Shown one piece after another: positions 2,056 to 40,127 of a stretch of 55,509 nt of DNA. Numbering within the stretch: the stretch's first letter is position 1; each line of letters begins with the position of its first letter. Below the pieces are notes generated by a model that worked only from the letters and a program-made list of their open reading frames with translations, made no database searches and had not been told where the DNA came from. Source of the DNA: a virus (Duplodnaviria; Caudoviricetes). Position numbers and translations under genes: made by a program. The stretch spans positions 1-55,509 of IMG/VR virus record IMGVR_UViG_3300032323_000841. The stretch is one strand, 5' to 3'.

Positions 2056-2856
2056 ATGAGCACCTATTCCCCCAGCCTGCGGATCGAGTTGATCACGACG
2101 GGCGATCAAGCCGGTACGTGGGGTAACACGACCAACACCAATCTGGGCACGCTGGTTGAGTCGGCCATTGCGGGGTATGTATCCGTCTCCATTACTTCGG
2201 CCAACCAAGCGCTCACGGCCCTGAACGGTGCGGCTGACCAAGCCCGCAACATGACGATTGCCCTGACGACCACCACCGGGGCTAACTTCGCGGTCTATGC
2301 GCCCCCGGCGGAGAAGACCTACGTCATCTATAACGCCAGCGCGTACACGGCCACGATCTACAACTCCACGGTGATTGGCAACACGACCGCTGCGGGTGCT
2401 GGGGTGGCTATTCCTGCGGGCAAGACCATGACGGTCTGGTCTGAGGGAACCAACTTCTATTTCCAGAACACCCACATCATCGGCACGTTGGTGGGCAACG
2501 TCACGGGTAATGCCGACACTGCCACCACAGCGACTACTGCCACCAACGCTAACAATATCAACATCAGTGCGACGACCAGCTCTGACACCACGACTTCCTT
2601 GGTGCTGGTGGGTGCGCAGGCTACGGGTAACCAGTCACCGTTCATCGACAGCGGGCTGGCCTACAACGCCAACACCAACACCCTGAGCACGGACAACGTG
2701 GCGATTGGTGCCGGTACTCTGACGACCACCAACTGGACGATCACGGAGTCTGCCGGCAAGCTGCTGTTTAGATATGGTGGCGTGACGGTTGCGTCTATTA
2801 ACACCAACGGTGCAATTGTTTCCGCCAACGATGTGACGGCATTTGGTACTCCTTAA
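2056..2856 (+). CDS. Tail fibre protein
   Basis: AAGGAG RBS; N-terminal LRIELITTGDQAGTWGNTTNTNL; Thr-rich; C-terminal SANDVTAF fibre-tip-like ending. Confidence 0.7.
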   Translation: MSTYSPSLRIELITTGDQAGTWGNTTNTNLGTLVESAIAGYVSVSITSANQALTALNGAADQARNMTIALTTTTGANFAVYAPPAEKTYVIYNASAYTATIYNSTVIGNTTAAGAGVAIPAGKTMTVWSEGTNFYFQNTHIIGTLVGNVTGNADTATTATTATNANNINISATTSSDTTTSLVLVGAQATGNQSPFIDSGLAYNANTNTLSTDNVAIGAGTLTTTNWTITESAGKLLFRYGGVTVASINTNGAIVSANDVTAFGTP

Positions 2857-2865
2857 GGATCAGAT

Positions 2866-3741: not shown

Positions 3742-3752
3742 TTGGAGCAACA

Positions 3753-4091
3753 ATGAACAGCATCAAATTCAAAATCCAAGGGTACGACGAGGCCAGCAAC
3801 TCGCTGCTGGTTTCCTTTGCCTCCGACACGACGGCCAGCACCGACCCGGCAACATACACCGCGTATGCCTTTCAACCGATGACCATGTGGCCCGATGTCA
3901 CCGATACTGAAGAGATTAAAAAGCGAATTGCTCAGGCTGGCATCTATCAAGCCAAACTGCAAGAGGCTAAAGAGAAGTTTGCCGCTGATCCCCAGCAGGC
4001 TGCCAAGTTCAAGCAGATGGTCGGTCAGACGCATGAGTTCACAGTTGCTCAACTTGCTGACAGCGACACCACCCCGATTGCAACGGTGTAA
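3753..4091 (+). CDS. Hypothetical protein (tail-associated)
   Basis: GGAG RBS before ATG 3753; tight operon spacing. Confidence 0.7.
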   Translation: MNSIKFKIQGYDEASNSLLVSFASDTTASTDPATYTAYAFQPMTMWPDVTDTEEIKKRIAQAGIYQAKLQEAKEKFAADPQQAAKFKQMVGQTHEFTVAQLADSDTTPIATV

Positions 4092-4093
4092 AC

Positions 4094-4567
4094 ATGATCC
4101 GCAAACCATTCGCCGCGTTTGGCCGCGTTCTTTACGCCAACTACTACGAAGCCGGATATACGGTAGAAGCCAGCACCTTTGCAAACAGCAAGACCGTCCT
4201 GCTGTTTACAGAAGGCAGCATGATCGCTCGGGATAAGACGACCGGAGAAGTGGTGCATCGGTGTGTTCCCGGCTGGATCAACAAAGGGAACTACGAGGAC
4301 CGTGTACTCAGTTGCATCTCTGAAGTTCCTAGCGTGTCTTGGTGCTATGACCCGAAGGTGAACCATGACTACGTGCCCGTCATTGAGCTGGTGGCCATGA
4401 AAAAAGGGCAGATCATGGAGTTCCCGGAAGGCACATCTTTGTTCTTGTGCCATGGCACTTTGGCCATCAACGGGGCTGACCATGCGGCACCTCGCCAAAT
4501 CGCAGTGCGTTCTGCAAAAGCCACTGCAACCGCGTCCACAGATGTATACGGGCTAATCTTCAAGTGA
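4094..4567 (+). CDS. Hypothetical protein, possible cupin-like fold
   Basis: 157 aa in operon; beta-rich LFLCHGTLAING; overlaps next gene by GTGA. Confidence 0.6.
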   Translation: MIRKPFAAFGRVLYANYYEAGYTVEASTFANSKTVLLFTEGSMIARDKTTGEVVHRCVPGWINKGNYEDRVLSCISEVPSVSWCYDPKVNHDYVPVIELVAMKKGQIMEFPEGTSLFLCHGTLAINGADHAAPRQIAVRSAKATATASTDVYGLIFK

Positions 4568-5109
4568 AGCACGCGGCGCAGCTCAACTACCAAATCGACA
4601 TGCGCCCTCTTATGTCGTCAGTCATTGGCCCTTTGCGTGATTACGGCAAGCTTCAAAAATATGGGAAAAGCCTGCCGGGCGGAGAGGCCATGGTAGCTTC
4701 CGGGTGGGCAGCCAAGAATAAGAGCGTCAGCAACGCGGATCTGTTCATTGATCAGTTGCCGAGCAAGCTGCTGGAGCTTGAGCGCCCCTACGTGATTATT
4801 CTGGAGCTGCCTGCTTCAGATGTTGCCAACCCGATCCTTCCGGCCCACAGGGACTACAACAAGACCTGCGGCATCAACGTCTACATTGATGCTAATGGTG
4901 AAGTAACAAAGTTTTACAACTGGAACCAAGAGAAGCGTCAGTCCGAATATGTGGAAGAGTTCTGCGCCAACGCCGGGGAGATTTGGGCAATGGATACAGA
5001 TGTGCCGCACTCGGTGACCTTGGTTCCAAACAAAGCAAGGCGCATGCTGTCGTTCTGCTTCACGAAGACAAAATACAACGAGGTGGTTGAGTGCTTCACC
5101 AGAATGTGA
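4564..5109 (+). CDS. 2OG-Fe(II) oxygenase/cupin-like protein
   Basis: HRD motif (PAHRDY), distal His (VPHSV) and R-x-x-x-S (RRMLSF). Confidence 0.65.
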   Translation: MKHAAQLNYQIDMRPLMSSVIGPLRDYGKLQKYGKSLPGGEAMVASGWAAKNKSVSNADLFIDQLPSKLLELERPYVIILELPASDVANPILPAHRDYNKTCGINVYIDANGEVTKFYNWNQEKRQSEYVEEFCANAGEIWAMDTDVPHSVTLVPNKARRMLSFCFTKTKYNEVVECFTRM

Positions 5110-21100: not shown

Positions 21101-23594
21101 CACGACCACCCGGGAACAGAAAGGCTTTGCACAGCGCATCACCGAAGCCATCTCTCCCAAGACCTTCTCCACCCTGCGCCAGAAGTTCCTCAACCGCTAC
21201 GAGCAACTAGGTCGCTATGACAAGCTGCTGGCCGAGAGGATGGGCGGGGCAGCGTTGTTGGCCGATCAGAGCGCAGAATCTGCCGCACTGATGTCTGACC
21301 TTGCGTCTGGCGTGAGCGCTTCAGCCATGGGCTTTGGCGACCGTCATGGGGGAATTCCCGTTTACAGGGGGGGAACTACCATCATCAATCGTGATGTCAA
21401 AGGATTGGTGGCGTCCCTCGCTCCTCTTGCCAAGTACGGCAACCCCAAGGTCTATCAGTACTACCAGTTCTGGGCCGGTGCCAAGCGTGCCAGACGCCTG
21501 CGTGCGGAAGGCCGTGAGCGCGTTTACACCGATGATGACTTCGCCTACGCCGACATTCTGGAGCGTCAGTTCCCGGAGTTCGTGGGCGTACAGAAAGACC
21601 TGATCGCCTTCAACGATGGCATCGTGAAGTACTTGGTTGATACTCAAGTTCTAAGCAAAGAGCAGGGCGAGAGCTACACCCAGTACGCTGACTACATCCC
21701 CTTCTATCGCCAGATGGATGGGGAGACGACCTCTGGCCCGAACATCTTCACTGCGATCTCTGGTGTCCGCCCGCCCAAGAAACTCAAGGGTGGCGAGGCT
21801 CCCTTGGCCGACTTCTTGGAGACGCTGGTGCGCAACACCCAGTCTTCCATTGAAGCTGGCATGAAGAACGCCGCAGCCAACCGCGCCATCTCTGTGGTCA
21901 AACGGGTCGGTGATGCCCCGGGTGTTGGCATAGAACGGCTCGATACCCAAGAGTCTGGCCCGAACATCATCAACGTGCTGGAGAACGGCAAGCGCGTCTC
22001 CTACCGCACGCCTGATACCCTCTTGGTTGAAGCTGTGGGTAGCCTGAACATGTCCGAGCTGCCCTTCATGGGGTTGATCTCCGGGCCGTCCAACCTGCTG
22101 CGTAACTTGGTGACCAAGGACCCGGGCTTCATGATGGCTAACTTGCTGCGTGATTCCCTGTCTGCGTATGTGACCTCCGGGCAGAGCATGACCCCGATTG
22201 CCGGGACCATGACCAACTTTGCCAAGGCTCTGGCCCGCAAGTCCCCCGGCTACGAAGCTCTGCTGGACGCCGGTGTCATCGGTGGCTATGAACTGAGCCA
22301 GAACGTGGAGCGCAGTGGCGAGGCTCTGGCCCGTGATCTGGACAAGAAGGCTGGAAGAAAAGACCCCATCCTGATGCGTCCGTTTACATCGCTGTGGAGT
22401 GCCCTTGAGACGGGAACCACTGCGTCGGATGCAGCCACCCGCTCGCTTGTCTATGAGCGTGTCATGGCTGAGACGGGCAACGAGGCAGAAGCTCTGTACC
22501 GTGCGGTGGAGGTGATGAACTTCAACCGCAAGGGTAACTCTCCCCTGATCCGTGTACTGACCGCCGCAGTGCCCTTCTTCAATGCCCGCTTGCAGGGTCT
22601 GGATCTGTTCTACAGGGCCTCGACCGGCAACATGCGGACCAATGATGCCAAGGCCATCCAGCGCAACTTCTGGATTCGTGGCTTGACTATGGGCGGCCTG
22701 TCTATCATGTACTACATGATGGTCGCAAACGACGAGGAGTACAAGAAGCAGGAGCAGGAAACCAAGGACGGGAACTGGCTTATCCCCAGCCTCGGAATCC
22801 GCATCCCCATCCCGTTTGAAGTGGGTGTGCTGTTTAAAACGTTGCCAGAGCGGATCACCGCCCTGTACTTGGGCAATGACACCGGCAAGGACTTCATGGA
22901 GTCCGCTAGACGCAACTTTTTCAACACGTTCGCGTTTAACCCGATCCCACAGACGGTCAAGCCTATCGTTGAAGCCACGACCAACTTCAACTTTTTCACG
23001 ATGCGTCCCATCGTGGGACAAGGGATGGAGGACGTTGCGTCTCAGTTCCAAGTTGGCCCGGGCACGTCTAAGGTTGCAGAGATCATGGGCAAGCAGCTAG
23101 GCATCTCTCCCATGAAGATTGACCACATGCTCAAGGGTTACACCGGAACCTTGGGTATTTACATGGTCGATACCACGGATCTGATCATGGAGCAGTTTGG
23201 CACTGGAACTAAGGCTAACAAGCGCTTTGAACAGATGCCCGTGATCAAGCGGTTCACGGTTGACCCGGAAGCCCGTGGCAACATCACCGCCTACTACGAG
23301 CTGAAGGATTCAGTAGATACGTTTACACGCACATCCAACCTGCTTGAGAAGACCTCCAAGCCGGAAGAATTCTTGGCTTACGTCAAGAAGAACGCCGGTG
23401 TCTTCGCGGTCAAGGACTACGTCCTAGACCTAGAGAAGGAGATGAAGGAGCTGCGGGAGATGCGCCGCATGGTGACTTCGTCCGACATGGACGGGGAAGA
23501 GAAGAAGAACCTTCTCATTACACTTGGCCGGGCGGAGAACAACTTGACCGCCAACATTCAGACGGTAAAGAAGGTCATCGCTTCAGCAAAATGA
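15126..23594 (+). CDS. Large polyvalent virion protein (zincin-like, ART-like, GP88-like, ParB-like, LPD38-like domains)
   Basis: 2822 aa; HEALH..EEAIA; YYHTT..VYLT; CPRSAICEGLC..RLNVTSD..FYDYTK; MFHGS..QVKSITGN; GHEGRHR; RIPIPFEVG. Confidence 0.75.
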   Translation: MTVQAQLADGRILEFPDGTDPKVIQATVKRVIASSEAAPEEGILASGIGGFKRFGAGLETALGSVIDPEIAARRGLQRQQEISAQYAPGASLEKVKQAYEQSGLLSAAGEAISQVPAALAEQFPNIAATLAAGKAGAMAGTAVAPGVGTIVGGLTGAAIPSLLQLYGSNLVRQQEETPGDLSRLSALGAAVPGTALEVAATAIPLGRTFIGKILGPEAEKMLARGTSASLEKAAKEGVAASLARGAGVGVLAEIPTEVTQQMLERLQAGLPLTTPDALSEYGEAAYGAGLVGAPFGAGARAAGRSSAQAQYAALKQKEDEAAFEQEKAAALARRQEELAAQQEQLNRNRENLGLPETPVLALPAPAAVAEPEKEVDLQNPVGNITREELSPEVLKYVDQYRKDMGMPRLKSFSVEDIRDAMTNVNPQGEQAALDSILAFKTGFKGEETFSAEDVINAAVEKNIATETKGFGDFLERTTGNRDITKLSQPQLYAAFKSLKDLPAVAPGEQVVLPEGSNASRFTQKQYNNALKYVGVSFQEMGNQPLAREVISQDVMDAAGLESQRAAEMLLDTALKNGDLSESRQQVFRTIDPKTGEIKFTYFDRAKAEAAAKKQKLDVQEQTLVSIAPKEAPKPSPRAPLPGGFDIAEQDFVEGERPAGFAITPEGQMKPLVTILEEQDVPAKIERLQGLRRKEADKLLQDVSKHEQTVKKGRAALESMEARGETDTDGYKKAQAQQARAEDILGRRIESLLNRIEEYGVPLQAKPVGKRQVTRKGFTVTKEGKTVGTFPTRAEAEQSILANLSDKELQDIVDSGKQGAFLDRAQKELEGRKTPGIKVKKSPKSEEQIKQEQEKAKKEAERDERVQKLEELLVPLLSKFGLKDVALKIVDQIEHGAGGKYSSLQKLIQISLEADKPVQTMRHEALHALKNLGFFTPQQWKALEQQAKKTWVDKYLKGQMTELDGKVMTRFDAYKKLGYSEADLLEEAIADAFGDFDGGTKPPPGMMAALFKRIKDFFAALKRALTGAGYESAEDIFGKIEEGKLAKKIEKVDDAAEKLSLGKPSEANAWQADEATIKQADKFEEETGIRPYVSEGFFDLPTEAPKYSLQKFNPEKHLKFDPTLGVPINKDGTVTVYYHTTKQNSLNIGRNKVIPSEGRNRVYLTNESGGDAILRNRGSFDQDLDGSTVLVYVTPDMLQLDAEYENGRRDFFIPLAQGDFFNKKMKMQSIQKGRQEAITGEFSYDDHEKRITKAVQAYKDATPAERKKLVANARKLLKKEHNVGNLLSENGKLEKTRVGEYGLDYEGNSVASQGLGLAAAQKISEKVSTCPRSAICEGLCLGETSGGNFMFGGTASEDVDDIAKSAFRAGPRMMQYLKTEALVINPEAFATVLQAEIDSLKKWSAAPTQTKINKENKKREQVAKEIYQPAVRLNVTSDFKPEMFRAVIEGNPDVQFYDYTKLGSDSIGPNHHLTYSSTGFGQVINGEAVFFKNKAGQYDHNWATMRGRLNDGQNVAMAFSSKSALPDFLVDEETGVQYRVWDGDDYDARFLDPKQPDGRGMIIGLRNKAGNLSEKNATQKTGGFFVKYDPKTDGDTVVVPTQAQFKGAGRKVIPLAKAEKLSLRTYFPTAEEAEKAAYAKAPPETKEFKLFQGASQLVEEGRAIPMFHGSPDIFTQFRENKPIFVSPSAAEAEYFGKRLRTPDSMDVQVYPLWVRAETPFDYENPDHVRQVMDKMAQDDTLQGKQPAFFNRGHWENIEDRKVQAAIKALGFDSFYVQEGKSKNLAVYDASQVKSITGNIGDFGANKDIRFSLARFTPERIDKLINEFGYTDGRTYAMVGRVNPQEFVYATIPSPSDYETIRKEAGKLDIEKLRAESQTPFIYWDIEKNAIVGHEGRHRMAAMADAGVNDAAVVVVIRDRYGSKKPGVYKPIDFEYITGQSFSGGKGKGLRVTDMIPAVYTQEKALKENFTGDAQVKFSLPTVDPRINERVDMITTTREQKGFAQRITEAISPKTFSTLRQKFLNRYEQLGRYDKLLAERMGGAALLADQSAESAALMSDLASGVSASAMGFGDRHGGIPVYRGGTTIINRDVKGLVASLAPLAKYGNPKVYQYYQFWAGAKRARRLRAEGRERVYTDDDFAYADILERQFPEFVGVQKDLIAFNDGIVKYLVDTQVLSKEQGESYTQYADYIPFYRQMDGETTSGPNIFTAISGVRPPKKLKGGEAPLADFLETLVRNTQSSIEAGMKNAAANRAISVVKRVGDAPGVGIERLDTQESGPNIINVLENGKRVSYRTPDTLLVEAVGSLNMSELPFMGLISGPSNLLRNLVTKDPGFMMANLLRDSLSAYVTSGQSMTPIAGTMTNFAKALARKSPGYEALLDAGVIGGYELSQNVERSGEALARDLDKKAGRKDPILMRPFTSLWSALETGTTASDAATRSLVYERVMAETGNEAEALYRAVEVMNFNRKGNSPLIRVLTAAVPFFNARLQGLDLFYRASTGNMRTNDAKAIQRNFWIRGLTMGGLSIMYYMMVANDEEYKKQEQETKDGNWLIPSLGIRIPIPFEVGVLFKTLPERITALYLGNDTGKDFMESARRNFFNTFAFNPIPQTVKPIVEATTNFNFFTMRPIVGQGMEDVASQFQVGPGTSKVAEIMGKQLGISPMKIDHMLKGYTGTLGIYMVDTTDLIMEQFGTGTKANKRFEQMPVIKRFTVDPEARGNITAYYELKDSVDTFTRTSNLLEKTSKPEEFLAYVKKNAGVFAVKDYVLDLEKEMKELREMRRMVTSSDMDGEEKKNLLITLGRAENNLTANIQTVKKVIASAK

Positions 23595-23868
23595 GGTCGT
23601 TATCGAAGAGCCAGCCAATGGTTCTTCGGTGCGCCTCATCCCATATCTCCCGCTTCTGGTTCTTATCCCAGAGGAAGCCCTGATCGATCTGGAAGTGGCA
23701 GGTGTGGCATAGGGCTGCAATCCTGTAGTCGTGGGCCTTGATGCCCTTGCCCTTGCCGTCCCTGATCTGGTTTGAATGGGCGGCTACCACCGTCCCATCC
23801 TGCGCCCCGCAGTGCTGGCAGGGGCACTCCCTGACCGCCTCCAGCAGGGCTTTGTTGCGGTAGTTCAT
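23575..23868 (-). CDS. DUF1364/YbcO-like Zn-binding nuclease
   Basis: CQHC..VVAAHSN..GKGIK..LCHTCH. Confidence 0.75.
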   Translation of the reverse strand: MNYRNKALLEAVRECPCQHCGAQDGTVVAAHSNQIRDGKGKGIKAHDYRIAALCHTCHFQIDQGFLWDKNQKREIWDEAHRRTIGWLFDNDLILLKR

Positions 23869-24107
23869 TTAGAAGGCACAGCCCGGGAGAACGCAGAAAA
23901 CTCCCGCAGGTTTATACGGCTGATAGTTTGAGTCAGACCTCCTAGGTTGCTGATGTCTCTGCCATTTAAACGCTCACGCTCCACGACCATGGTCTGGCTA
24001 GCGGATGACATGGCGGATTTAGCAAATGACTTGTCCAAAGAAAACATAGATGGGGTCTTGTTCTCGCGCCAGCGGAAGGGATTGTTCGGGTGGCAATTGC
24101 ATTTCAT
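23865..24107 (-). CDS. Hypothetical protein
   Basis: 80 aa; 4-bp overlaps with both neighbours. Confidence 0.6.
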   Translation of the reverse strand: MKCNCHPNNPFRWRENKTPSMFSLDKSFAKSAMSSASQTMVVERERLNGRDISNLGGLTQTISRINLREFSAFSRAVPSK

Positions 24108-24304
24108 GATGGCTTTCTTTCTCCAGATTCAAAGGCTTCTCTGTTGTCAGCGCTATTGTGCACCGCAACAAGTTCTTCATAGTCAAGCTCAGGGGTGCAC
24201 CAGCAGTCTCCCCTAAGCTCATGTTTGTATGTGTCGTTTAAAGGTATGACGTGGGTAACCTGACAGCCCTCGTGAGACTCTCCGACAATGGTTGCCCACA
24301 TCAT
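24104..24304 (-). CDS. Small His/Cys protein
   Basis: HVIPLND..H..CWCTP..VHNSADNRE; translationally coupled. Confidence 0.65.
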   Translation of the reverse strand: MMWATIVGESHEGCQVTHVIPLNDTYKHELRGDCWCTPELDYEELVAVHNSADNREAFESGERKPS

Positions 24305-24546
24305 TTTTTTCTCCGGCTATCGGGTCTAGGGCAGTGAGGTGGCGGGACAACCACGCACCACACGGCAGCTAGACGCTTGCCAGTCTTGAGCCAGCGGTCT
24401 ATATAGGCGTCGGGCATGTTATGCACGATTCGGCTGATGTGTGACCTGTCTGTACCCGCCAACTCTGAAATTTGTGTCACTGTCAGTCCATCCGCCGAGG
24501 CCCGCAGAACTTCCCGCACCTTGTTGATGCGAATGTTACTGCCCAT
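24301..24546 (-). CDS. Small HTH-like protein
   Basis: DGLTVTQISELAG..ISRIV; MPDAYIDRW. Confidence 0.65.
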   Translation of the reverse strand: MGSNIRINKVREVLRASADGLTVTQISELAGTDRSHISRIVHNMPDAYIDRWLKTGKRLAAVWCVVVPPPHCPRPDSRRKK

Positions 24547-24715
24547 AGCTCACCGCGAACCAGACCACAGCCCACGCTGCTGCAACCACGGCCCAGAACT
24601 TGATGTTCGTCCACAGTTCGTCTTTAGTTTCCACCATAAGCATCACAAAAGGAATCGTCACCAATAGCAGGACGGCGGTGGCCAGCAGGAAGATGATGAT
24701 CGGTAGTAGGGTCAT
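24536..24715 (-). CDS. Small two-TM membrane protein
   Basis: GAGGAG RBS before ATG 24715; two hydrophobic segments. Confidence 0.6.
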   Translation of the reverse strand: MTLLPIIIFLLATAVLLLVTIPFVMLMVETKDELWTNIKFWAVVAAAWAVVWFAVSYGQ

Positions 24716-24873
24716 GTGTTCTCCTCTTTCAGTTCTTCCATACACTCAGCCCAGCCCAGCAGCATGTACCACGAATACTCACTGTTTGGGCTGCGCTCAA
24801 AACTGAAATGGGCCATCGCCAGATAGTTTTCTGCTGCGGCCCACCAGCGGCTGCGTTCGTAGTCAGGATGCAT
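24712..24873 (-). CDS. Hypothetical protein (53 aa)
   Basis: MHPDYERSRWW...; GAGGAG upstream; ATGA-coupled to next gene. Confidence 0.5.
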   Translation of the reverse strand: MHPDYERSRWWAAAENYLAMAHFSFERSPNSEYSWYMLLGWAECMEELKEENT

Positions 24874-25084
24874 CTTTCTCTCCTCTTGCTCGGATGGCGG
24901 CGAGGATGCCCGCCCCAAAGTCGGCCCCCGTAGATGTCTCCCACCAGCCATCAGGGGATTCAGTTTCGGTTTGGTCGATGCCCTTGAGCAGCGCAATCAA
25001 CGCCTCGCGCTCGGCCAAAACCGCGGCCTTGACAGCGGCTTCCAGTTCGGATCGGTACACCTGCGTGTCGTCGTCGTCAGTCAT
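24863..25084 (-). CDS. Hypothetical protein
   Basis: GGAGG RBS; AEREA...AAIRARG ending common in small phage ORFs. Confidence 0.6.
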   Translation of the reverse strand: MTDDDDTQVYRSELEAAVKAAVLAEREALIALLKGIDQTETESPDGWWETSTGADFGAGILAAIRARGEKDAS

Positions 25085-25120
25085 GCGCGCCTCCAAGCGA
25101 TCCCCTGTTTGCGTCGATTC

Positions 25121-25573
25121 TCATGCCCTCTTCTCCTGCTGCACAACCCGTGGGGCAACGCGGGCTTCAACATCAAGGATGGCATCTGCCAAGTCTTGGT
25201 CCATCAGGTGCAGCTTCTGCGTCCAGCGGACAATCGTTAGCTGGATATCACGGATTAACTCAGCCTTGAGAGCTGCGTCACTGACCACGTCCGAGGTTAG
25301 TCGGTAGCCCCCGCCCGCCTCACGATCCGTTGGCAGGCTCACAAACGCCCGGATCTGCGTTGGTTGGGTCTCAATCAACGTGATCTTGCACCGGGCTATT
25401 AGTGCCCGGGCCTGCTGCTTACGGTACTGCACCGCAGCTTCAGTGTCATCCCATTCAAAGTACTTGTGCAGGATGCTGCCCTCGTCCTGTGCCTCTTGCA
25501 GCACATCCTCGACCTTGAGCACACCGCCATTTTGACGGGCCATCTTTGTCAATAACTTGCGTTCTTGTTCCAT
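25121..25573 (-). CDS. LHxxFEWDD protein, downstream partner of the RAMP/array locus
   Basis: 150 aa; GGAGA RBS directly after the last array unit; LHKYFEWDDTEAA..YR..QARALI..IRAFVSL. Confidence 0.75.
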   Translation of the reverse strand: MEQERKLLTKMARQNGGVLKVEDVLQEAQDEGSILHKYFEWDDTEAAVQYRKQQARALIARCKITLIETQPTQIRAFVSLPTDREAGGGYRLTSDVVSDAALKAELIRDIQLTIVRWTQKLHLMDQDLADAILDVEARVAPRVVQQEKRA

Positions 25574-25595
25574 GTTCTATCTCCATTTAAATGTT

Positions 25596-25959
25596 GCCTG
25601 CCTAGCCATGCCGAGCCTAAACCAGCCCGTCCAATACGATCCGTGCCTGCCTTGCCTCATCATGCCGCGCTTTACCATGCCCTGACGCGCCAGACCTGCC
25701 AGTCCTTGCCATACCACGCCTAACTCGGACTCTCCTAGCCTGCCTTGCCATAACTAGCCTATCTATGCCCGGCCGTGCCGTACCCTGCCTGCCTTGCCTG
25801 TCCTGATCCAACCGAGCCATGCCAGAACCTGCCTTGCCTGCCGTGCCTGAACAATCCCAACCACGCCACGCCCTGCTACGCCTTGCCTGCCGTGCGTTGC
25901 CAAACCAAACGGTGCCAAACCCAGCCCAAACCCGCCGCGCCGTGCCCCGCCTAGCCTGC
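25596..25959 (-). repeat. NN-GGY pentamer array of seven units; candidate guide-RNA array
   Basis: Hand-parsed: 66 in-phase pentamers (44 end exactly in GGC/GGT) in blocks of 13,9,9,9,8,9,9, each closed by AGGC (once AGGT); first two bases variable. Confidence 0.9.
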
Positions 25960-25963
25960 GGTG

Positions 25964-26626
25964 TTAAGCAATGTTGAACTTCTTCTTCACTTCATTTTCC
26001 CGGTCACTCGGGACTACTTGGAATAGGCCAAACCCGCAGCCAGCCGAGGCCTTGCTGTCAGGACGACCTGCTCCAATTCCTACTTGCATCCCGCAGCGAG
26101 ACACAAGGTTAAGCACATCCACCGTTTTAAATTGATCGGTGTCATAACGCACCCGCAGCTTTGCAGCCCAGCTACGGTACATAGGACGTGAGCGCACATC
26201 AACAACACCCGTAGCGTTGCGGGTATGCGCTGTGTATGTGTGGCTTTCGCCGTAGACACGAACCAAGGGAACCCCATCGTTCTTGTCAAACCCATCGGCT
26301 TCAATGAACGTGGACAGCTTGGCAAGGGTCATCTTGAACCCAACCAGTCGGCAGGCGCTGATCATTGCTGCGCGGAATGCTGCGGCATTCATGCCTTCCC
26401 ATCCCTCTGCGCTGCGATAGCGGGCTTCTTCGGCCTCTCTCTCGTAGTCCCGCGCATCGCGGACCTTCTTGCTGTTGGAACTCTTGCCCTCCGCCATCTT
26501 CGCCATCAGTTCGGCTTTCTTACTGAAGCGCTCTACCACCAGCGGGGCAGTGCCTTCAATGTAGAAGTCAGTCATGCTGAACTTCGGGGGGCTGATTACA
26601 CAGGTTTCTTCTTTAACAGTCATCAT
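25964..26626 (-). CDS. Stand-alone RAMP superfamily (Cas7-like) protein
   Basis: 220 aa; FYIEGTAPLVV first strand, MNAAAFRAAM helix, RSRP..WAAKLRVRYD, Gly-rich loop GMQVGIGAGRP..GCGFGLFQV. Confidence 0.75.
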   Translation of the reverse strand: MMTVKEETCVISPPKFSMTDFYIEGTAPLVVERFSKKAELMAKMAEGKSSNSKKVRDARDYEREAEEARYRSAEGWEGMNAAAFRAAMISACRLVGFKMTLAKLSTFIEADGFDKNDGVPLVRVYGESHTYTAHTRNATGVVDVRSRPMYRSWAAKLRVRYDTDQFKTVDVLNLVSRCGMQVGIGAGRPDSKASAGCGFGLFQVVPSDRENEVKKKFNIA

Positions 26627-26644
26627 TTTTCTCCGTTTAAATGT

Positions 26645-26980
26645 TTATAGTTGCTTACCACTCGGCGTTGCCGCGCACGGCCACACACTCTTGAGCACAT
26701 GCGACACGATCTGCTGTGCAGGCAGATGGCGTATCGCTGGCGTGTTCTCTAGATAGTTTCTCACCATGTCCCGAATCTGCCCCGCTGTAATGTTTGCTGG
26801 CGGGCAGTGCGTGACGTTCAACAAGGCATCAGCCACACCAGTGATGTAGCCCATCCCGATGGCAGGAAGGACGTTGGTGCCGCTGTTGTTGTTCAACTCG
26901 GACAGCAGCTTGTTGCCGTCCTTGAAGTAGGCATTGGCAGAGCCAGCCACAAGGGCGAGACACAGGAGAAGGTGTTTCAC
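26645..26980 (-). CDS. Secreted Rap1a-like immunity protein
   Basis: Signal peptide KHLLLCLALVAGSANA; GNKLL, GYITGVAD, CPP..TAGQ, YLENTP..RH, terminal WPC. Confidence 0.7.
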   Translation of the reverse strand: MKHLLLCLALVAGSANAYFKDGNKLLSELNNNSGTNVLPAIGMGYITGVADALLNVTHCPPANITAGQIRDMVRNYLENTPAIRHLPAQQIVSHVLKSVWPCAATPSGKQL

Positions 26981-27168
26981 TTTACCCTCCGCATCGGCTC
27001 CCACCCTGCGTCAGGGATGCGCTCCGGGGGAGGAGGTGTCATCGTTGCACTGGGCGGCACCCAACCAAACCTTCTCCATGTGGCTTGCACATCCGCGCCA
27101 CGCTGGTAGCTGAACTTCACGTCAGTTACGCGGGTGGTCGGTTCTACTCGGGTCTGTTCACGTTTCAT
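26977..27168 (-). CDS. Hypothetical protein
   Basis: 63 aa; DVQATWRRFGWVPPS; coupled. Confidence 0.6.
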   Translation of the reverse strand: MKREQTRVEPTTRVTDVKFSYQRGADVQATWRRFGWVPPSATMTPPPPERIPDAGWEPMRRVK

Positions 27169-27491
27169 TTAAATGTCTCCTGAGTTGCTTTCAGTACACG
27201 TTGACTGCGCCCCGATCTGCCGGGCCGACGCAGGCCGGTATCTTCTATGAATCCCTTGTCCAGCAATGCACGGTAACGCGCAGTGATTGATGAGTACGGG
27301 TAGTTCGGGAACAGCGCACGAACTTCATCACTGATGCAACCGTCGGGGAACTTCTTGATGGCCTCATAAACAAGGCTCTCAAGGTTTGTAGTATCCACCA
27401 GATGCGCAGCCTCATGGCTTGTGTCCGGTGAATCTGACCGCACAAGGTGGCGTGGATTTGTGCCAAATATTTTCATGAACGTTTCTTTCAT
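27165..27491 (-). CDS. Winged-helix-like protein
   Basis: RSDSPDTSHEAA; SSITARYRALLDKGFIEDTG..GRSGRSQ. Confidence 0.65.
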   Translation of the reverse strand: MKETFMKIFGTNPRHLVRSDSPDTSHEAAHLVDTTNLESLVYEAIKKFPDGCISDEVRALFPNYPYSSITARYRALLDKGFIEDTGLRRPGRSGRSQRVLKATQETFK

Positions 27492-27700
27492 TCATCCATC
27501 TCCTTGCTGAAATTCGGGTTCTTCTCGGTAATCCAGAAAGACTGATCGTTTAAAAGCATGCCCTTTGCTTGCATCTCTTCTCTGGTTCTGCATCGGCGGT
27601 CCACACCAAACTTGCCGACACGGTGCATTTCAAAGGCGCTGTTGCTGTTAAAGTATTCCTTACAGGACTGGCATTGGTTTCTCTGTCCCCGCAGCTTCAT
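27488..27700 (-). CDS. Zn-finger protein
   Basis: CQSC..FNS..AFEMHR..RRC. Confidence 0.65.
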   Translation of the reverse strand: MKLRGQRNQCQSCKEYFNSNSAFEMHRVGKFGVDRRCRTREEMQAKGMLLNDQSFWITEKNPNFSKEMDE

Positions 27701-27995
27701 GTTCTAGATCCTTGATTTGATGCTTGACCACCTCTTCCTCTACAAGCTCTGCAAACGAACGTCCCGAGGGGAAGCGCATCTGCGAGGCTTGGATGCCTGC
27801 GACCGCATGGATTGCTTTCTGTAGGCCATCGTTAAAGCCGGTGTTGTAGGGGTTGCCATCACTGAGCCGCGCAGTCACGGCTTCCCGGATGATCTGTGCC
27901 ATGGGCAGCTTCATCTTCTTTGCTGCCTTCTTCAGACGCAGGATGTCCTGACTGCTCAGGTACGTCATGAATGGTTTGTAGTTTCCGCCTGTCAT
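27660..27995 (-). CDS. Ribbon-helix-helix-like regulator
   Basis: KPFMTYLS..LKKAA..MAQIIREAV. Confidence 0.55.
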   Translation of the reverse strand: MTGGNYKPFMTYLSSQDILRLKKAAKKMKLPMAQIIREAVTARLSDGNPYNTGFNDGLQKAIHAVAGIQASQMRFPSGRSFAELVEEEVVKHQIKDLEHEAAGTEKPMPVL

Positions 27996-28004
27996 TGTTG
28001 TTCC

Positions 28005-28400
28005 TCAGAATGGGTCATCTGGATACCTCAAGCTCTCATACTCTTTGACCAAGTTATCGAAGATGGTCTTGGCCTGAGCGTTCCCGTGTAGCTCAGTGCG
28101 AGACTCGATGCCGCACCGTTTACACAGCTCTGCGGCGGCCTCGTCCTCTGAGTTCACCTCCAAGAAATCTTGGAAGTGGTCGTTGCGGCACAGCATCCCG
28201 GCCTTCTTGACCCGGTTGGTGTACTCGGTGGGTGACTCGTCATCTTGGATGCGAACCAAGGCGCAGGCATACCGCGCCCCCACGAAGTCCCGGATCAGCT
28301 CCTCCGGGATCTCATCTGGATGCATGGATAGCGTCAAGATAAAACCTGTGCGGTCTTGCTTGAGCGCTACCTTGCGGGCTTCAAACTGAAGCGCCATCAC
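28005..28400 (-). CDS. Hypothetical protein
   Basis: 131 aa in operon; CGIESRTEL. Confidence 0.7.
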   Translation of the reverse strand: MMALQFEARKVALKQDRTGFILTLSMHPDEIPEELIRDFVGARYACALVRIQDDESPTEYTNRVKKAGMLCRNDHFQDFLEVNSEDEAAAELCKRCGIESRTELHGNAQAKTIFDNLVKEYESLRYPDDPF

Positions 28401-28729
28401 GCAGCCTTCCGGATGCCAGCGGCAGTCTCAAGGTAAGCAATGATCGCCTTTAAACGTTCATTCTCTGCCGTAAGATTGGCCAGCTTGTAACGCAGCTCGA
28501 CCTCGGTGTCCGTCTTCGGTTGGATAGTCTTGACGGGCACAACCTTCGCGATCTTCTTGTGGAAACGCTTCTGAGCACGGGGCAGCATCTTGTGACGGCG
28601 CAAGCTTTCCTTGGCGTCATAGACCTTCTGAACGTGAACTTCAAACACCTTGGCGATGTCCGAGCACTTGTCGTTCGGGAACTCGATCAGGTGGGCTTTG
28701 ATCTTCTGCATTTTGTTTTCAGTTGTCAT
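28397..28729 (-). CDS. HTH/coiled-coil protein
   Basis: CSDIAKVFEV HTH-like start, C-terminal coiled coil; GGAG RBS. Confidence 0.6.
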   Translation of the reverse strand: MTTENKMQKIKAHLIEFPNDKCSDIAKVFEVHVQKVYDAKESLRRHKMLPRAQKRFHKKIAKVVPVKTIQPKTDTEVELRYKLANLTAENERLKAIIAYLETAAGIRKAA

Positions 28730-34284: not shown

Positions 34285-35835
34285 TCATACGGCCAACTTG
34301 ATTTGTTTAAATGATGCGGCCCCGAGATCTGCAAGGTTGTCTACCTTGATGTTCTGCGGGTAGACCCGGCTCACGTCCAGTTCAATGCCGACCCCGAGGG
34401 TGGTGATCCCGAGGTTAGTCCCGGCCTGCACCTGACGGGCCGTTGCCTCGGGTTCCCCGTTACCATCGGTCAGCACGATGCACACCTTGCGGGCCTCCCT
34501 GCGCTGGAGCAAAAGCTTGTGGGCATATCGCACAGCGAAGAAGTCATTCGTACCACCGCTCGGGGTCAGACGCGACAGGGCATCAAGGCCTAGGGCCTTG
34601 CGCTCGTTCCAGTCCTTCACAACGCTCGTGCCGTGGTTGAACGACAGCACTGCGGTGGCCACTCCCGCCCGGTCCAGCACGTCGAGCAGGGCCGCGCAGC
34701 ACTGCACAGCAGGGGCAAGGCGAGTGCGTCGCATGGAACTAGATACGTCCACCACCAGCACCACCGCAGAATCAACCCCCGCAGTCTCCGAGCGACGTTT
34801 AAATACCTTGTCACTGACACTCAGGCGAGACAGGGCATTCACGTCCACCGTCCCGGCTGCGCGGCGCAAGCCGAATTCAACCTTCGCAGTGTCATCAAAC
34901 AGGCGTTTCAAGTTGTACCGCAGTGCACCGGGCACGGTGATCTGGATATCGAAGGCCTTACCCTCGACATGCGCACCCTTGCGGTACAGGAGTGTCTCTT
35001 CACAGTATGACGCACTCATCCCCCCCGTACCCTCGGGGTCGGGGGACATCACCACGGGTTCGACCGGGCGGAAGGCCTCCTTCCCTGTGGGCGCGGTGGC
35101 AGGGGAAGGGGTAGGGGTGTTCTCGCCCTTGTTCGCGTCTCCTGTGCCCTTCTGGGGGCCTTCCTGCCCCTTCTGCTTGCCTTGCTGCTTGTTCTGCTTG
35201 TTCTGCTTATTTTTCTCGGGCAGGAATTTCAATTGACCGTAGACCCACTCGGCAATCCGCAGGGCATCGGCACTGCTGCCGCACGATTTAAACTGACGTG
35301 CTGCTTCCTCGAAGATCGGCTCCAGACCGGGGGCCAATGGTACCTTGGTGGTGGCATGGTCCCGCAGGTAGACAGCAAGGGCAAACGGGTATTGCGCAGG
35401 GTTCCCCCAATCGGTCACGTCGGCCATTGCCTCGGCCACCATGCCATCGATGAGGCTAGAAAAGAGTGCCTGAATATTCCCGGTCAGGCCTGACTGGATA
35501 GCCCGACGTTCAATGTAGGCATCCTCGACGGCATTGTGTAGTTGTGTTAGCAGGCGGTCATTGCTGGCTGCGAATACCACATTCCAATCGGTATAGGCGT
35601 GGTGGCACAGTTCGTGTGCACCCATGCCGATATACCGCAGCAGCGTTGCGTGAGGGATGCGTGAGTCATCCTGCACGTCGGCCAGCAGCACCCGGCCAGA
35701 ATTATTGATGGCTGCGGTCTGGACTTCATGGGTCCACTGCACGGTGATCTTGTGCAAGCCGAGCGAGGTATTGATCTTCCCGAGCACCTCTTCAACGGCG
35801 GCGCGGAACTCGAAACCAGAATAGAAGGCTTTCAT
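34285..35835 (-). CDS. VWA-domain protein with N-terminal HExxH region (CobT-like)
   Basis: AHELCH..NAVED..IE; MIDAS DVSSSM, GGT, VLTDG. Confidence 0.85.
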   Translation of the reverse strand: MKAFYSGFEFRAAVEEVLGKINTSLGLHKITVQWTHEVQTAAINNSGRVLLADVQDDSRIPHATLLRYIGMGAHELCHHAYTDWNVVFAASNDRLLTQLHNAVEDAYIERRAIQSGLTGNIQALFSSLIDGMVAEAMADVTDWGNPAQYPFALAVYLRDHATTKVPLAPGLEPIFEEAARQFKSCGSSADALRIAEWVYGQLKFLPEKNKQNKQNKQQGKQKGQEGPQKGTGDANKGENTPTPSPATAPTGKEAFRPVEPVVMSPDPEGTGGMSASYCEETLLYRKGAHVEGKAFDIQITVPGALRYNLKRLFDDTAKVEFGLRRAAGTVDVNALSRLSVSDKVFKRRSETAGVDSAVVLVVDVSSSMRRTRLAPAVQCCAALLDVLDRAGVATAVLSFNHGTSVVKDWNERKALGLDALSRLTPSGGTNDFFAVRYAHKLLLQRREARKVCIVLTDGNGEPEATARQVQAGTNLGITTLGVGIELDVSRVYPQNIKVDNLADLGAASFKQIKLAV

Positions 35836-35844
35836 TCTGTCACC

Positions 35845-37221
35845 TCACAGGTAATCGTTGATTGTGTATTCACTGATGCAGGCGGCATAGATACCACGCA
35901 GCACAGCATGCGATTCCGAGGGCTGGCGGGCCACTACAGCGGCCTCCCATGCCTCGCCCGGGGGCAGCACCCGCAGGGCGCGGATGAAGGCCATAGCCGA
36001 GCGGATACTAGGCGCGTCTGTGATCTCGGCGGTCTCGACCTTGGAGCGGGCCACCTTGATCGCACCATGCACATGCTGTGCCAGTTCGAAGGCGCACCCG
36101 GTGTGCTGGACCAGTGCCCGGATTTCCTGATTCTCTGGCAGGAATTTAAACGCGATCACCCGGGCGAAGCGATCAACCAGTGCCGAATTCTGGTTCCGAG
36201 TCCCTGCGTAGCGGCCCGAGTCGTCCCCGCTGCCGAAGGTGTTGTCAGCAGCGAACACCATCACCCCGGGGGCACGAATATGGGTTTGCCCCCCGAATGC
36301 CACGCAAGCTTTAGGTTCCAGAAACCCGTTAAGCGGGGCCAGTTCGCCCGGGTCTGCGTTAGTGATCTCGTCCAGCAGGATCACAGTGGACGGGCAGGTG
36401 TACCCTTGCAGGAAGTCCCGCTTCTCGAACACGGTAGCACCACCCTGCAAACCCACGGCCCCGATGTATTCCTCGGCTGCTGTGTACTTATGGAAGTTGA
36501 TGCGTTTAAATGCGCGCCCCGTCCGGGCGGCCCACTGGCGGGCTGTCTCGGACTTACCCGTGCCCTTGTCCCCCCCGAACCACAGGTTTTCCCCGGTCTC
36601 CTGTGCCAGCAGCAGGTGACGCAGAATCGGCTCGGTCCAAATAAAATCCGGGTCAATCGCGGGTGCTTCGGGGTGGTTCCAAACCTCTACCATCATCGGC
36701 TGGCCCTTCATGTCCAGCACATCAAGGCCGAATACGTCCACGGCGGGGCGGGTGTCCACCACATGCACAGCAGACAGGTCGGCCACAATGGACTGTGCCC
36801 CTGCCTGCTCCACTGCCGATTTAAACGGAGCAAATGCCTCGGCCACGGCCCGGGTAACGGCCCGGCTCACCTCCACAGGGTCGGCCCCCTCGGGCTTTGC
36901 ACGAGCAAGCTTTTCCAAGCCCTTCACCTGCTCGGCCACAGAACGGACGGCGGCAGCAGCATCAAGCGCGAGGGTCTCGGCCCGGGCTGCCACGGCAGCA
37001 GCAGCAGCGACAGCGGGGGACTCGACGGCGGGGGCGGGCGCGCCTGCCGGGGGCACGAGGTCGGACAGTGCCAGCATGCCGCCCTTCACCATCTCGGCCA
37101 GCCATGCTGCGGCCTGTGCTTTTGTCACCCCCTCGGGGCCACCGTATCGACGCAGGGCAGCGATGATGACGGGGGTCGGCAGGGCATTGATCTGATTGAA
37201 GGTTTTAACGTCGGCGCTCAT
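35845..37221 (-). CDS. MoxR/CbbQ/CobS-family AAA+ ATPase
   Basis: GDKGTGKS, LLDEI, AADNT, NSALVDRF, PSIR; ATG 37221 with GGAG RBS. Confidence 0.88.
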   Translation of the reverse strand: MSADVKTFNQINALPTPVIIAALRRYGGPEGVTKAQAAAWLAEMVKGGMLALSDLVPPAGAPAPAVESPAVAAAAAVAARAETLALDAAAAVRSVAEQVKGLEKLARAKPEGADPVEVSRAVTRAVAEAFAPFKSAVEQAGAQSIVADLSAVHVVDTRPAVDVFGLDVLDMKGQPMMVEVWNHPEAPAIDPDFIWTEPILRHLLLAQETGENLWFGGDKGTGKSETARQWAARTGRAFKRINFHKYTAAEEYIGAVGLQGGATVFEKRDFLQGYTCPSTVILLDEITNADPGELAPLNGFLEPKACVAFGGQTHIRAPGVMVFAADNTFGSGDDSGRYAGTRNQNSALVDRFARVIAFKFLPENQEIRALVQHTGCAFELAQHVHGAIKVARSKVETAEITDAPSIRSAMAFIRALRVLPPGEAWEAAVVARQPSESHAVLRGIYAACISEYTINDYL

Positions 37222-37237
37222 GGTCAGGGTCTCCGAT

Positions 37238-37822
37238 TTAAACGGTAAGGGTGTCACCACACGGGCAGACGGGCATGCCACGGTCCACCCATTTTTGGGT
37301 GGTCCTGACCGTGTACCCGCAGGACGGGCAGCACAGTTTGAGCATGCGGGTCGGCTGCACAGGGGCCTCGCTTGCAGGGGTTAGCTGGCCGTGGGGGTAG
37401 TCCCCCAACAGGTCCAGCATGGGGCCGTAGGTGGTGGCGAAGGTGGCATTGCCCTTAGTGGACTTCCATGCTTGCCGGGTGGTCCCGACGGCCACCAGAC
37501 CCATATCCCGGGCCACGGCTTGGAAGGCGGTCCCGTGATTCATTGCCCCATCGGTCGCGTGGCAGAGTTCGTGCACGAGGGTCTCGAAAACTTCGAGGCG
37601 GTCGGCCAGCACAGGGGAGACGAGAATTTCAATGTGTGCATCAGCACTGGCAGCACTGGCCCAACACTGGCCGATCGCCTTGCTGCGGCGGGCATGCAGG
37701 GGGAACCCACAGGCCACCCGGATAGCCAGTGGCAGGGGCTTGCTGATCTGATCGAAGGCGGGGCGAAGGGAATCCACGGCGGCAGTTAGCCAAGCTTCGC
37801 GGGTGTGGTGAATGAGGTTCAT
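37238..37822 (-). CDS. SprT-like Zn metalloprotease with C-terminal Zn ribbon
   Basis: GQCW, TLVHELCH, NHG..F, CPSCGY..R..CPCG. Confidence 0.82.
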   Translation of the reverse strand: MNLIHHTREAWLTAAVDSLRPAFDQISKPLPLAIRVACGFPLHARRSKAIGQCWASAASADAHIEILVSPVLADRLEVFETLVHELCHATDGAMNHGTAFQAVARDMGLVAVGTTRQAWKSTKGNATFATTYGPMLDLLGDYPHGQLTPASEAPVQPTRMLKLCCPSCGYTVRTTQKWVDRGMPVCPCGDTLTV

Positions 37823-38705: not shown

Positions 38706-38937
38706 GGTCTAGGCTCCGGGTTGTGCTATTGCTAGCGGTCCGGGCAGTGTAATCGATTGTGGCCATGTAAATGCATTCCTGAGTGCTGCGTGGGGTTATT
38801 CCGGGGCCGGGCAGGACGGTCTAGGGGGACTGCACTCTATATAGATATGCAGGGTCCGGGGGCCTGATCCGGGGCAAAAGTAATACTTTTCCGAGAAGTA
38901 TTAAAAACCGCTCAGAACGGCCTAGGTGAGGCGATCA

Positions 38938-38963
38938 GGGGTAGGGTAAGGGGTAGGGTAGGG
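38938..38963 (+). repeat. (GGGTA)n G-tract repeat
   Basis: GGGGtaGGGtaaGGGGtaGGGtaGGG, five G runs. Confidence 0.8.
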
Positions 38964-39011
38964 TCTAGACCGAAAACCTCACCACGGCCCGATTAGGGGC
39001 CTTCCTGACAC

Positions 39012-39132
39012 TGTGCATATCCTGTGGATAAGTGCTTGTCCACAGCGGTCCGAGAGTTATCCACAGAATCCACAGAGTTGTCCACATGAACAAGATGTGG
39101 ATAACTTGACGCTGTGGATAGGGTGTGGATAA
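39012..39132. promoter_or_regulatory. DnaA-box cluster
   Basis: Perfect TTATCCACA/TGTGGATAA at 39023, 39057, 39096, 39124; near-matches at 39012, 39036, 39066, 39078, 39113. Confidence 0.85.
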
Positions 39133-39176
39133 TGCGAACAGTCTGGACATTTAAACAGCATGAGGGGAATTACAGT

Positions 39177-39833: not shown

Positions 39834-40127
39834 TGCAGTGCTCACGTCACGCAGTGCAGTGCCCAAGCTTCCCCCTTCTACTCTCATCAGCGAGGGGGGC
39901 AGTGGCATGCGAGGCGGGCACGGCGCGACCCCACCCACTCCCCACCCCCGGACTGGCCCAGCATACCTCCCCCTCCCATGCCTACGCTGTAATCCACTCC
40001 CACAATTACCCCCTCCCCACCACCACGAACGTTCCCACCCGCACCTCATCGTGTAAATCTGGGGAGACCCCCGGGTAGATGAGTTTTTGTAGACCCCCGG
40101 GGGGTGTATATTTTTTCATTTAAATGC

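Follow-up and report, generated by a model that had tools for sequence, protein, structure and literature searches.

What does a guanine-rich tract of pentamers encode when its copies differ from one another at exactly two of five positions? The question is raised by a 55,509-nucleotide (nt) stretch of tailed-phage DNA (IMG/VR virus record IMGVR_UViG_3300032323_000841, positions 1 to 55,509; Duplodnaviria, Caudoviricetes), hereafter called the window, in which such a tract lies on the minus strand at 25596..25963, between genes for a 220-amino acid (aa) and a 150-aa protein. The region is very probably the guide array of a Viral Interference Programmable Repeat (VIPR) system carried by a freshwater tailed phage. 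This reading draws on the homology of the 220-aa protein to Vipr, on the grammar of corresponding arrays in related phages, and on the match of one window guide, together with guides of relatives, to genes of foreign proviruses.

VIPR systems were introduced in three preprints of 2026 (10.64898/2026.04.26.720920; 10.64898/2026.04.26.720927; 10.64898/2026.10.15.759431), and the following outline reflects the parts of these sources consulted here. A VIPR locus, mostly found in viruses, encodes Vipr, a minimal RAMP protein of approximately 20 kDa with an RRM core, a glycine-rich loop and a thumb, next to one accessory gene (vap) and long intergenic arrays from which guide RNAs (vrRNAs) of 9-16 YNNGG repeats derive, with conserved GGY and hypervariable NN. 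Vipr is described as assembling into a helical filament in which each repeat is occupied by one protomer, GGY is sequestered and the dinucleotide NN is presented. According to the same preprints, NN pairs with DNA while one target base in three, usually the wobble base of a codon, is passed over (NNx); the complex binds through a triplex R-loop and silences transcription, with enhancement by vap1, and in nature it is directed against satellites, prophages and other VIPRs. In arrays termed staggered, consecutive processed vrRNAs overlap by 1 nt, so that each one starts where its predecessor ends (10.64898/2026.04.26.720920, fig. S18 legend).

Structure of the array

The array occupies the minus strand between the 220-aa open reading frame (ORF) upstream and the ribosome-binding site of the 150-aa ORF downstream. 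It extends from the stop codon of the 220-aa gene (CGCAGGC, 25960-25954) to 25596, beginning slightly beyond the start that had been assigned in an earlier, blind reading of the sequence (the first-pass annotation), and it holds seven guides of 8-13 NNGGY repeats. The first, U1, is a pentamer stretch of 65 nt with 13 NN (25889..25953). Five others, namely U2 (25840..25884), U3 (25791..25835), U4 (25742..25786), U6 (25649..25693) and U7 (25600..25644), are stretches of 45 nt with nine NN each, and U5 (25698..25737) is a stretch of 40 nt with eight NN, reading TA GA CG TA GT AT AA CT. Coordinates, dinucleotide lists and lengths of all seven units exactly reproduce the decoding of the first-pass annotation. 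Just 22 nt follow the last unit, and they hold the ribosome-binding site of the 150-aa gene, directly after the last array boundary.

Each unit closes with NNGGC followed by a 4-nt step, such that the pentamer lattice slips by one base at every boundary (GGC-A-GGY). The pentamer before the boundary ends in GGC in all seven units, as had been claimed. The step is AGGC at six boundaries and AGGT after U5, where the boundary reads GGCAGGT, a small correction to the GGCAGGC of the first-pass annotation. Among the 66 pentamers of the window, 37 end in GGC and 44 in GGY, and 50 carry GG at positions 3-4; the remaining endings are GGA (6), GTT (5), AGC (2), GAT (2), GTC (2) and five singletons. The NN positions are AT-richer than the genome, again as first described, with a GC content of 35.6% over 132 bases vs 55.9% for the genome.

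The tract contains 38 GG-5-GG pairs. Among 2000 resamples from a first-order Markov model the mean was 14.2 (standard deviation 5.0), and the highest value was likewise 38. Successive GGY triplets are spaced by 5 nt (28 times), 4 nt (10 times), 10 nt (9 times), 6 nt (3 times), 15 nt (twice) and 20 nt (twice), and Tandem Repeats Finder assigns the array a period of 49 nt. No direct repeats beyond the 7-nt boundary were found in the window array, and an Rfam gathering scan of the whole window returned 0 families. Searches of 50,697 phage records by megablast with 23500-28500 and by blastn with the array gave no match, a result in which the low-complexity filter may mask the array.

The flanking proteins

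The 220-aa gene, vipr (25964..26626, minus strand), is an ORF assigned to PHROG 4652 (phrog_4652, E 2e-20), and its product had no match in Pfam or NCBIfam. A phmmer search of the protein against PDB sequences returned one match, 36pp_D 'SUSP1 Vipr protein' (E 0.0025), and a profile of 32 homologs matched only the same SUSP1 Vipr chain (36pp_D) at E 5.2e-16, with 187 of the 209 profile positions covered. The AlphaFold2 model has a pLDDT of 89.5 and a pTM of 0.84. In Foldseek it gave 48 matches at E<=0.001, the best being backbone subunits (Csm3/Cas7) from CRISPR (clustered regularly interspaced short palindromic repeats) complexes of types III and VII (E 2e-5, prob 1.00); the structure library used is older than the Vipr entry 36pp. 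The profile match and the modelled fold identify the protein as a Vipr homolog, a minimal RAMP (Cas7-like) protein. Conserved features include the G-loop motif GxGxxRP together with an invariant Arg/Trp. The glycine-rich loop reads GIGAGRP in the window Vipr and its nearest relative, and GxGE/DWRP, or GIGEGRP plus a downstream GWG, in other clades; the differences concern residues 183-189 and about 33.

The 150-aa gene (25121..25573, minus strand) is an ORF of PHROG 15946 (phrog_15946, E 1e-19), for which the name vap (vipr-accessory) is putative and given by position and linkage only. NCBIfam and Pfam gave no match for its product. The model is of high confidence (pLDDT 92.9); Foldseek found no match at E<=0.001, VIA-align returned only helical-hairpin matches (Z<=5.4, residues 89-150), and an atlas search led to virus-only clusters of 'hypothetical protein'. 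Homologs detected by tblastn occur in 33 phage records (27 Mycobacterium, 5 Gordonia and 1 cyanophage), and Vipr homologs occur in 32 records of the same groups (27 Mycobacterium, 4 Gordonia and 1 cyanophage). The vipr-vap pair with staggered GGC arrays was seen in the cyanophage Cy-LDV1, in Mycobacterium phage Quico, in another 26 records of mycobacteriophages, and in Gordonia phages, where the proteins are annotated as 'hypothetical protein'.

Array grammar and unit turnover in related phages

Comparative data provide the strongest evidence that the array is not a product of chance. The 220-aa protein recovered 54 related loci from IMG/VR, and an array of the same type follows the same gene in 50 of the 52 that were examined, with 3 to 22 units per array. 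Splitting at GGCAGG[CT] produced 446 units, 300 of them unique. The length of the unique units modulo 5 is 4 in 277 cases, 3 in 19, 0 in 3 and 2 in 1; units obeying the rule are mostly 39-64 nt long, and the overall variation is 39-69 nt. Parsing of the window and loci L001-L137 gave 625 unique guides with 6-16 NN and a mode of 9-10.

Among phages whose flanking protein is 83-100% identical, units are held in common and shuffled. Contigs of X2, X3 and X6, three aquatic metagenomes that stem from different studies, have U4 replaced, position 25744 being joined to 25795 with 84 other letters between them, and the joins fall within a few bases of unit borders. In metagenome contigs of X13, approximately 73 nt comprising most of U7 and the start of U6 (25604-25678) have been replaced by 19 nt. 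Units are exchanged as cassettes between related phages. The role that the first-pass annotation had given to GGCAGGC as the delimiter of units is borne out by the 5k+4 lengths of 277 of the 300 unique units, by unit swaps at or near borders, and by the description of staggered arrays in the figure legend cited above, as far as that legend goes; the same heptamer may in addition serve as an RNA processing signal. Metagenomes from 14 studies, sampled from lakes, aquatic sites and drinking water, contain parts of this region.

This grammar, AGGC steps included, recurs in three isolated phages beside a homolog of the 220-aa protein with 29-56% identity. Cyanophage Cy-LDV1 (L055) has two arrays, one after g34 and one after g33 (3615-3820 and 4395-4585), Mycobacterium phage Quico (L056) has one before gp57 (2035-2325), and Gordonia phage ODay (L057) has one after gp19 (3055-3265). 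The longest array seen is an uninterrupted tract of 1.6 kb at 2375-3996 of a 158-kb IMG/VR contig of a large phage (L075), where it lies beside a 399-aa Vap-like ORF.

An approach from the opposite direction started with the DNA motif alone. The pattern GGCNNGGCNNGGCNNGGCAGGCNNGGCNNGGC, in which GGC/AGGC and N are the sole elements, matched at least 134 stretches of IMG/VR, which were reduced to 74 non-redundant loci, and homologs of both genes were then sought by iterative searches. A Vipr-like ORF was present in 46 of these loci and a Vap-like ORF in 39, with at least one in 57 and both in 28. Each of these 85 ORFs has the same orientation as the array, and among the 39 Vap-like ORFs, 38 are within 150 nt of an array. 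Neither gene was found in 17 of the 74 loci, in six of which the array is at the contig's cut end; the remaining ones may be orphan arrays or misses of the crude ORF picking.

A Sak4-like gene of proviruses as the predicted target of guide U5

Scans of sequence collections used exact patterns only, with U5 read as NNxNNx, that is, with a gap of one target base between successive pairs (k=1). Under this rule U5 has at least 120 sites in IMG/VR, and 119 of the 120 among the matches listed lie in a Sak4-like gene, in frame, with x as the wobble base. The target consists of the codons of YDRYVIKL in a gene whose product carries PF13479 AAA_24 (E 1e-52) and matches phrog_124 'Sak4-like ssDNA annealing protein'; the homologs of the target gene are 50%-100% identical in protein sequence to one Sak4-like protein. 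In a collection of one genome per bacterial species, 94 of the 120 sites listed fall in the same Sak4-like gene, and the other 26 are scattered. The bacterial target records, judged from 80 titles, are mostly Rhodobacterales, with other Alphaproteobacteria and some Betaproteobacteria (Limnohabitans, Rhodoferax). A control with U5 in shuffled order had 31 sites, which were scattered and comprised 16 different 23-mers. The constant AG that follows the units is not part of the guide, because CA stands at that place in 117 of the 120 listed U5 targets.

Among the target records, five long ones, of 46-66 kb, have a provirus classification. One of these shows the gene within an early operon that runs in the order regulator, excisionase-like regulator, phrog_2480, Sak4-like gene, SSB, Cas4-domain exonuclease and helicase, with a primase further on. 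U5 is thus predicted to aim at the Sak4-like AAA_24 gene of proviruses, and this recombination ATPase gene would constitute a newly identified class of natural target, distinct from the natural targets named in the consulted parts of the preprints. The first-pass annotation had taken the AT-rich dinucleotides to indicate promoter-like targets, a suggestion that is not borne out: the sole target found for the window is a coding sequence in proviruses of 63% GC, with the skip on the wobble base. The NN of U5 have a GC content of 31% and the target motif lies in 63%-GC DNA; AT-rich NN are to be expected when a guide takes over just the first two positions of each codon.

The reading rule in guides of related phages

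A broader examination of the code drew on the guides of relatives. From the 625 unique guides, the 539 with at least 8 NN were compared with 2.49 Mb of retrieved DNA, and shuffled guides served as the control. With no gap (k=0), 0 guides matched without mismatch and 2 with one, vs 0 and 0 for shuffled guides. With a gap of one (k=1), 8 guides matched without mismatch and 9 with one, vs 0 and 1; with a gap of two (k=2), the numbers were 0 and 3, vs 0 and 3. The DNA had been chosen in part with the patterns of U5, U4 and U6, which explains the rows of those three guides; the guides of other phages played no part in the selection. A clear excess over shuffled guides, which the first-pass annotation had named as the test of its dinucleotide code, thus appears at k=1 only.

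The matches of relatives fall on several motifs of the same protein. In the Sak4-like gene, IKRFDSPE is matched by a guide from locus L013, VKADVGFN by guides from nine loci, GYGKGYVA by guides from L046, L047 and L052, and KNRYALPET by a guide from L012. Relatives' guides also match genes that neighbour the Sak4-like gene, and all matches are in codon register. In 100 kb later obtained from five proviruses, 3 guides matched without mismatch and 5 with one at k=1, vs 0 and 0 for shuffled guides, and almost nothing was found in the same DNA at k=0, 2 or 3; a further guide target, NTTTSMGR, lies approximately 10 kb from the Sak4-like gene. Guides of at least six related phages converge on one provirus family (L599-L603, L192-L311). 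Their targets are four motifs of the Sak4-like gene, the motif EVKVAETKY of a gene next to it, and the more distant NTTTSMGR.

Taken with U5, these matches to foreign genes at k=1 uphold the view that the NN dinucleotides bear the information. Targets appear to be read by a rule that skips 1 nt and places the skip on the codon wobble, as the sequence matches of one of the seven window guides suggest. When the U4 and U6 rows and several single hits with one mismatch are set aside as pre-selection or chance, all target matches are sense-strand copies of conserved peptide motifs. As a bolder corollary of the rather doubtful slip-only delimitation considered below, this orientation may point to guides being generated from coding information and not from copied DNA.

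In the window's own genome and the related loci (1.56 Mb, both strands), none of the seven guides exceeded shuffled guides at k=0, 1 or 2, and the only match at k=3 was the array itself; the 55.5-kb source genome contains no self-target. For U1, the best match in this pool at k=1 was 18/26, equal to shuffled controls. The exact nine-NN k=1 pattern of U2 had 0 matches in IMG/VR, as did the exact nine-NN pattern of U7, and U2 with up to 3 mismatches had 0 matches in the five target proviruses. The nine-NN pattern of U3 had 22 unrelated, AT-rich matches in metagenome contigs, which are at chance level because they are heterogeneous and AT-rich and about half have an in-frame stop inside the 27-mer. 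Eight NN of U4 gave 117 matches, 91 of which are one identical 23-mer from one abundant phage of 46% GC; the ninth NN matched in 3 of the 117, with approximately 7 expected by chance, and the 23-mer matches are attributed to chance because the longest ORF through the site is out of register with the NNx pattern. The eight-NN pattern of U6 had 19 heterogeneous matches, and the ninth NN matched in none.

Alternative explanations

One alternative is a transcribed G-rich RNA without guide function, either a TRAP-like sponge or a Rho-resistant spacer that forms R-loops, and it is highly unlikely. In Bacillus, the RNA sites of TRAP consist of conserved triplets every 5 nt on single-stranded RNA, with spacers of 2-3 nt and approximately 9-11 triplets per unit. 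The GGY triplets of the window stand 2 nt apart as in such sites, and the composition of the array (43% G, 21% C) would suit a spacer of this kind, as would the result that no sigma-70-like promoter and no intrinsic terminator were predicted in 24900-27300. However, unlike TRAP sites, the window triplet is GGY and not GAG/UAG, the spacers carry target information, and no TRAP homolog or other ring RNA-binding protein was found in the neighbourhood; identity with a TRAP-binding site was rejected on these grounds. Unit lengths that vary between 39 and 69 nt also argue against the fixed stoichiometry of a ring, and a sponge would leave the matches of NN to foreign codons in register unexplained.

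A DNA-level array bound as a duplex by the 220-aa protein, such as the iterons of a replication origin or a partition centromere, is extremely unlikely. It would account for an array that always lies beside the same gene pair, and units of approximately 49 bp resemble iteron spacing. To our knowledge, a 5-bp period is too short for repeat proteins that bind duplex DNA, and the neighbouring protein has a RAMP/Cas7-type RNA-binding fold and is of no known initiator or ParB/ParR type. In addition, the Vipr-like and Vap-like ORFs are read in the sense of the G-rich strand in 85 of 85 cases, and matches of NN to foreign genes at k=1 would not be expected of iterons. TRAP-like ring wrapping, origin iterons, an R-loop or switch region-like tract and an antisense Rho site were dropped as candidates once the neighbour had been recognised as a Vipr homolog.

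A functionless pentanucleotide microsatellite generated by neutral slippage can be dismissed: slippage can make short tandem repeats and the number of units varies from 3 to 22 in relatives, yet the variation between copies is confined to exactly two positions in each pentamer, lengths follow 5k+4, and the one-base-slip grammar is kept in phages of Cyanobacteria, Actinobacteria and, by the probable host, Proteobacteria whose Vipr proteins are only 29-56% identical, so that the comparative unit grammar sustains the first-pass judgement against slippage.

Several observations count against the assignment to VIPR or narrow it. A target has been identified for one of the seven window guides, U3, U4 and U6 being at chance level and U2 and U7 having 0 exact matches, in scans that took exact matches only and in which the U5 figures, as matches listed, are lower bounds. 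Moreover, the U5 sites count as one evolutionary target, because they are homologous copies of one conserved motif. In SUSP1 Vipr, the residues Asp177-Trp178 contact the two guanines, according to the consulted part of the structural preprint (10.64898/2026.04.26.720927). This pair is absent from the window Vipr, because its loop reads GIGAGRP: the window subclade has Ala-Gly at the place of Asp177-Trp178, and Glu at the position of SUSP1 His17, and the recognition of GGY may therefore differ in detail. The invariant 3' tail and the pseudoknot of type II are both missing, and there is no constant sequence between window units. As far as the source was consulted, small RNA sequencing confirmed the ribozyme-interspersed and single-guide forms of VIPR array and not the staggered form (10.64898/2026.04.26.720920). 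The assignment reaches the VIPR system and the staggered form, and not the VIPR type (I-VII).

Relation to known systems

The features of a minimal VIPR locus are present in the window, with vipr, array and vap on one strand of a virus record, and so is the hallmark of the staggered form, since a step of 4 nt interrupts the 5-nt lattice at each boundary. The closest likeness is to the staggered arrays described in the fig. S18 legend: a phage pair of vipr and vap, flanking intergenic GGY/NN arrays, an offset of one nucleotide between guides, no CRISPR repeat and no cas genes, the likeness extending as far as the description in that legend. To the extent covered by the consulted parts of the preprints, the locus also resembles type II VIPR (Escherichia phage SUSP1 and a Pseudomonas fulva prophage; PDB 36pp) in its homologous Vipr (profile E 5e-16), in the 1-nt skip on the wobble base, in guides of approximately 9-16 pentamers, in the lack of self-targets and in rival mobile elements as targets. 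The locus is unlike the characterised type II form because no invariant 3' tail occurs between units: the vrRNAs of SUSP1 are described as approximately 100 nt long with an invariant 3' tail and a pseudoknot, whereas the window units span 44-69 nt without a tail. The targets likewise differ, in that SUSP1 is reported to target a satellite recombinase and window U5 is predicted to target a Sak4-like gene of proviruses.

With the backbones of Class 1 CRISPR systems (Cas7/Csm3), VIPR shares a RAMP fold, a protomer for every constant-length segment of the guide, periodic base flipping and an array beside the effector gene. According to the consulted part of the structural preprint, the period is 5 in VIPR, with three guide bases and one target base flipped, and 6 in Class 1 CRISPR, with one of each (10.64898/2026.04.26.720927). 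Unlike CRISPR loci, the window locus lacks repeats and spacers, Cas6, Cas1, Cas2 and contiguous pairing. No cas families were detected among the 34 window proteins scanned, and membership in CRISPR-Cas was rejected in view of the missing repeat-spacer array and the missing cas families.

Proposed mode of action

On the orientation of the genes, the minus strand would be transcribed as an early operon in the order vipr, array and vap. By homology to SUSP1 Vipr, whose mechanism is taken from the preprints, Vipr would bind one protomer per GGY, flip the GGY out and expose NN. The one-base slip at GGC-A-GGY would end one filament and start the next, yielding seven guides of 8-13 NN without a structured tail, and the array RNA would be trimmed to unit length. 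Each guide would then read double-stranded DNA as NNxNNx, with codon positions 1-2 matched and the wobble ignored. Computational matching indicates that U5 specifies the YDRYVIKL codons, which lie in the early replication and recombination operon of proviruses that measure 46-66 kb and reside in Alpha- and Betaproteobacteria. Binding there would block transcription of the rival's downstream SSB, Cas4-like exonuclease, helicase and primase, by extension from the reporter and phage assays of the preprints, and the outcome would be silencing of a competing temperate phage in a shared host.

It is conceivable, although we regard it as rather doubtful, that a tail-less guide is delimited solely by the one-base slip (GGY-A-GGY). 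Filaments would in that case stop and restart by register, maturation would proceed with neither handle nor ribozyme nor dedicated nuclease, and the slips would double as the joints for cassette exchange.

Genomic context

The window phage encodes the functions of a tailed phage, including terminase, portal and ejection proteins, Sak, exonuclease and RusA, and a primase-helicase. Its large terminase is nearest to those of phage 023Pt_psg01, phage DSL-LC04 and Pelagibacter phage HTVC027P. Directly upstream of vipr, at 26645-27004 on the minus strand, a gene encodes a 119-aa protein with a Rap1a domain (type VI secretion immunity; PF18602, E 8e-15), which is unusual cargo for a phage early operon. 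At 34285-37281 on the minus strand, a gene pair encodes an AAA+ ATPase of the MoxR type and a CobT-like protein with a VWA domain.

An intergenic cluster at 39017-39135 (plus strand) contains DnaA-box-like 9-mers (TGTGGATAA / TTATCCACA and variants) in at least six copies and both orientations, and a tandem repeat of GGGTA at 38937-38964 adjoins it; the cluster may be the phage origin or a site that titrates DnaA. The scan for GG-5-GG also returned a second G-rich tract, at 39890-40074 on the minus strand, which is not a vrRNA array because it lacks both the NNGGY lattice and the AGGC steps and is not accompanied by a vipr gene.

Significance

The VIPR experiments reported in the consulted parts of the 2026 preprints deal with systems of enterobacteria and Pseudomonas. 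Arrays of the tail-less staggered form are common, occurring in freshwater phages, in a cyanophage and in phages of Mycobacterium and Gordonia, and their guides can be decoded from sequence alone, as illustrated by the blind dinucleotide decoding of the first-pass annotation, which was essentially right. The locus is a natural test case for the delimitation of guides without a tail, and the predicted pairing of U5, a conserved guide, with the Sak4-like gene of proviruses that occur in many Alpha- and Betaproteobacteria would provide a concrete, testable instance of conflict between a phage and a prophage.

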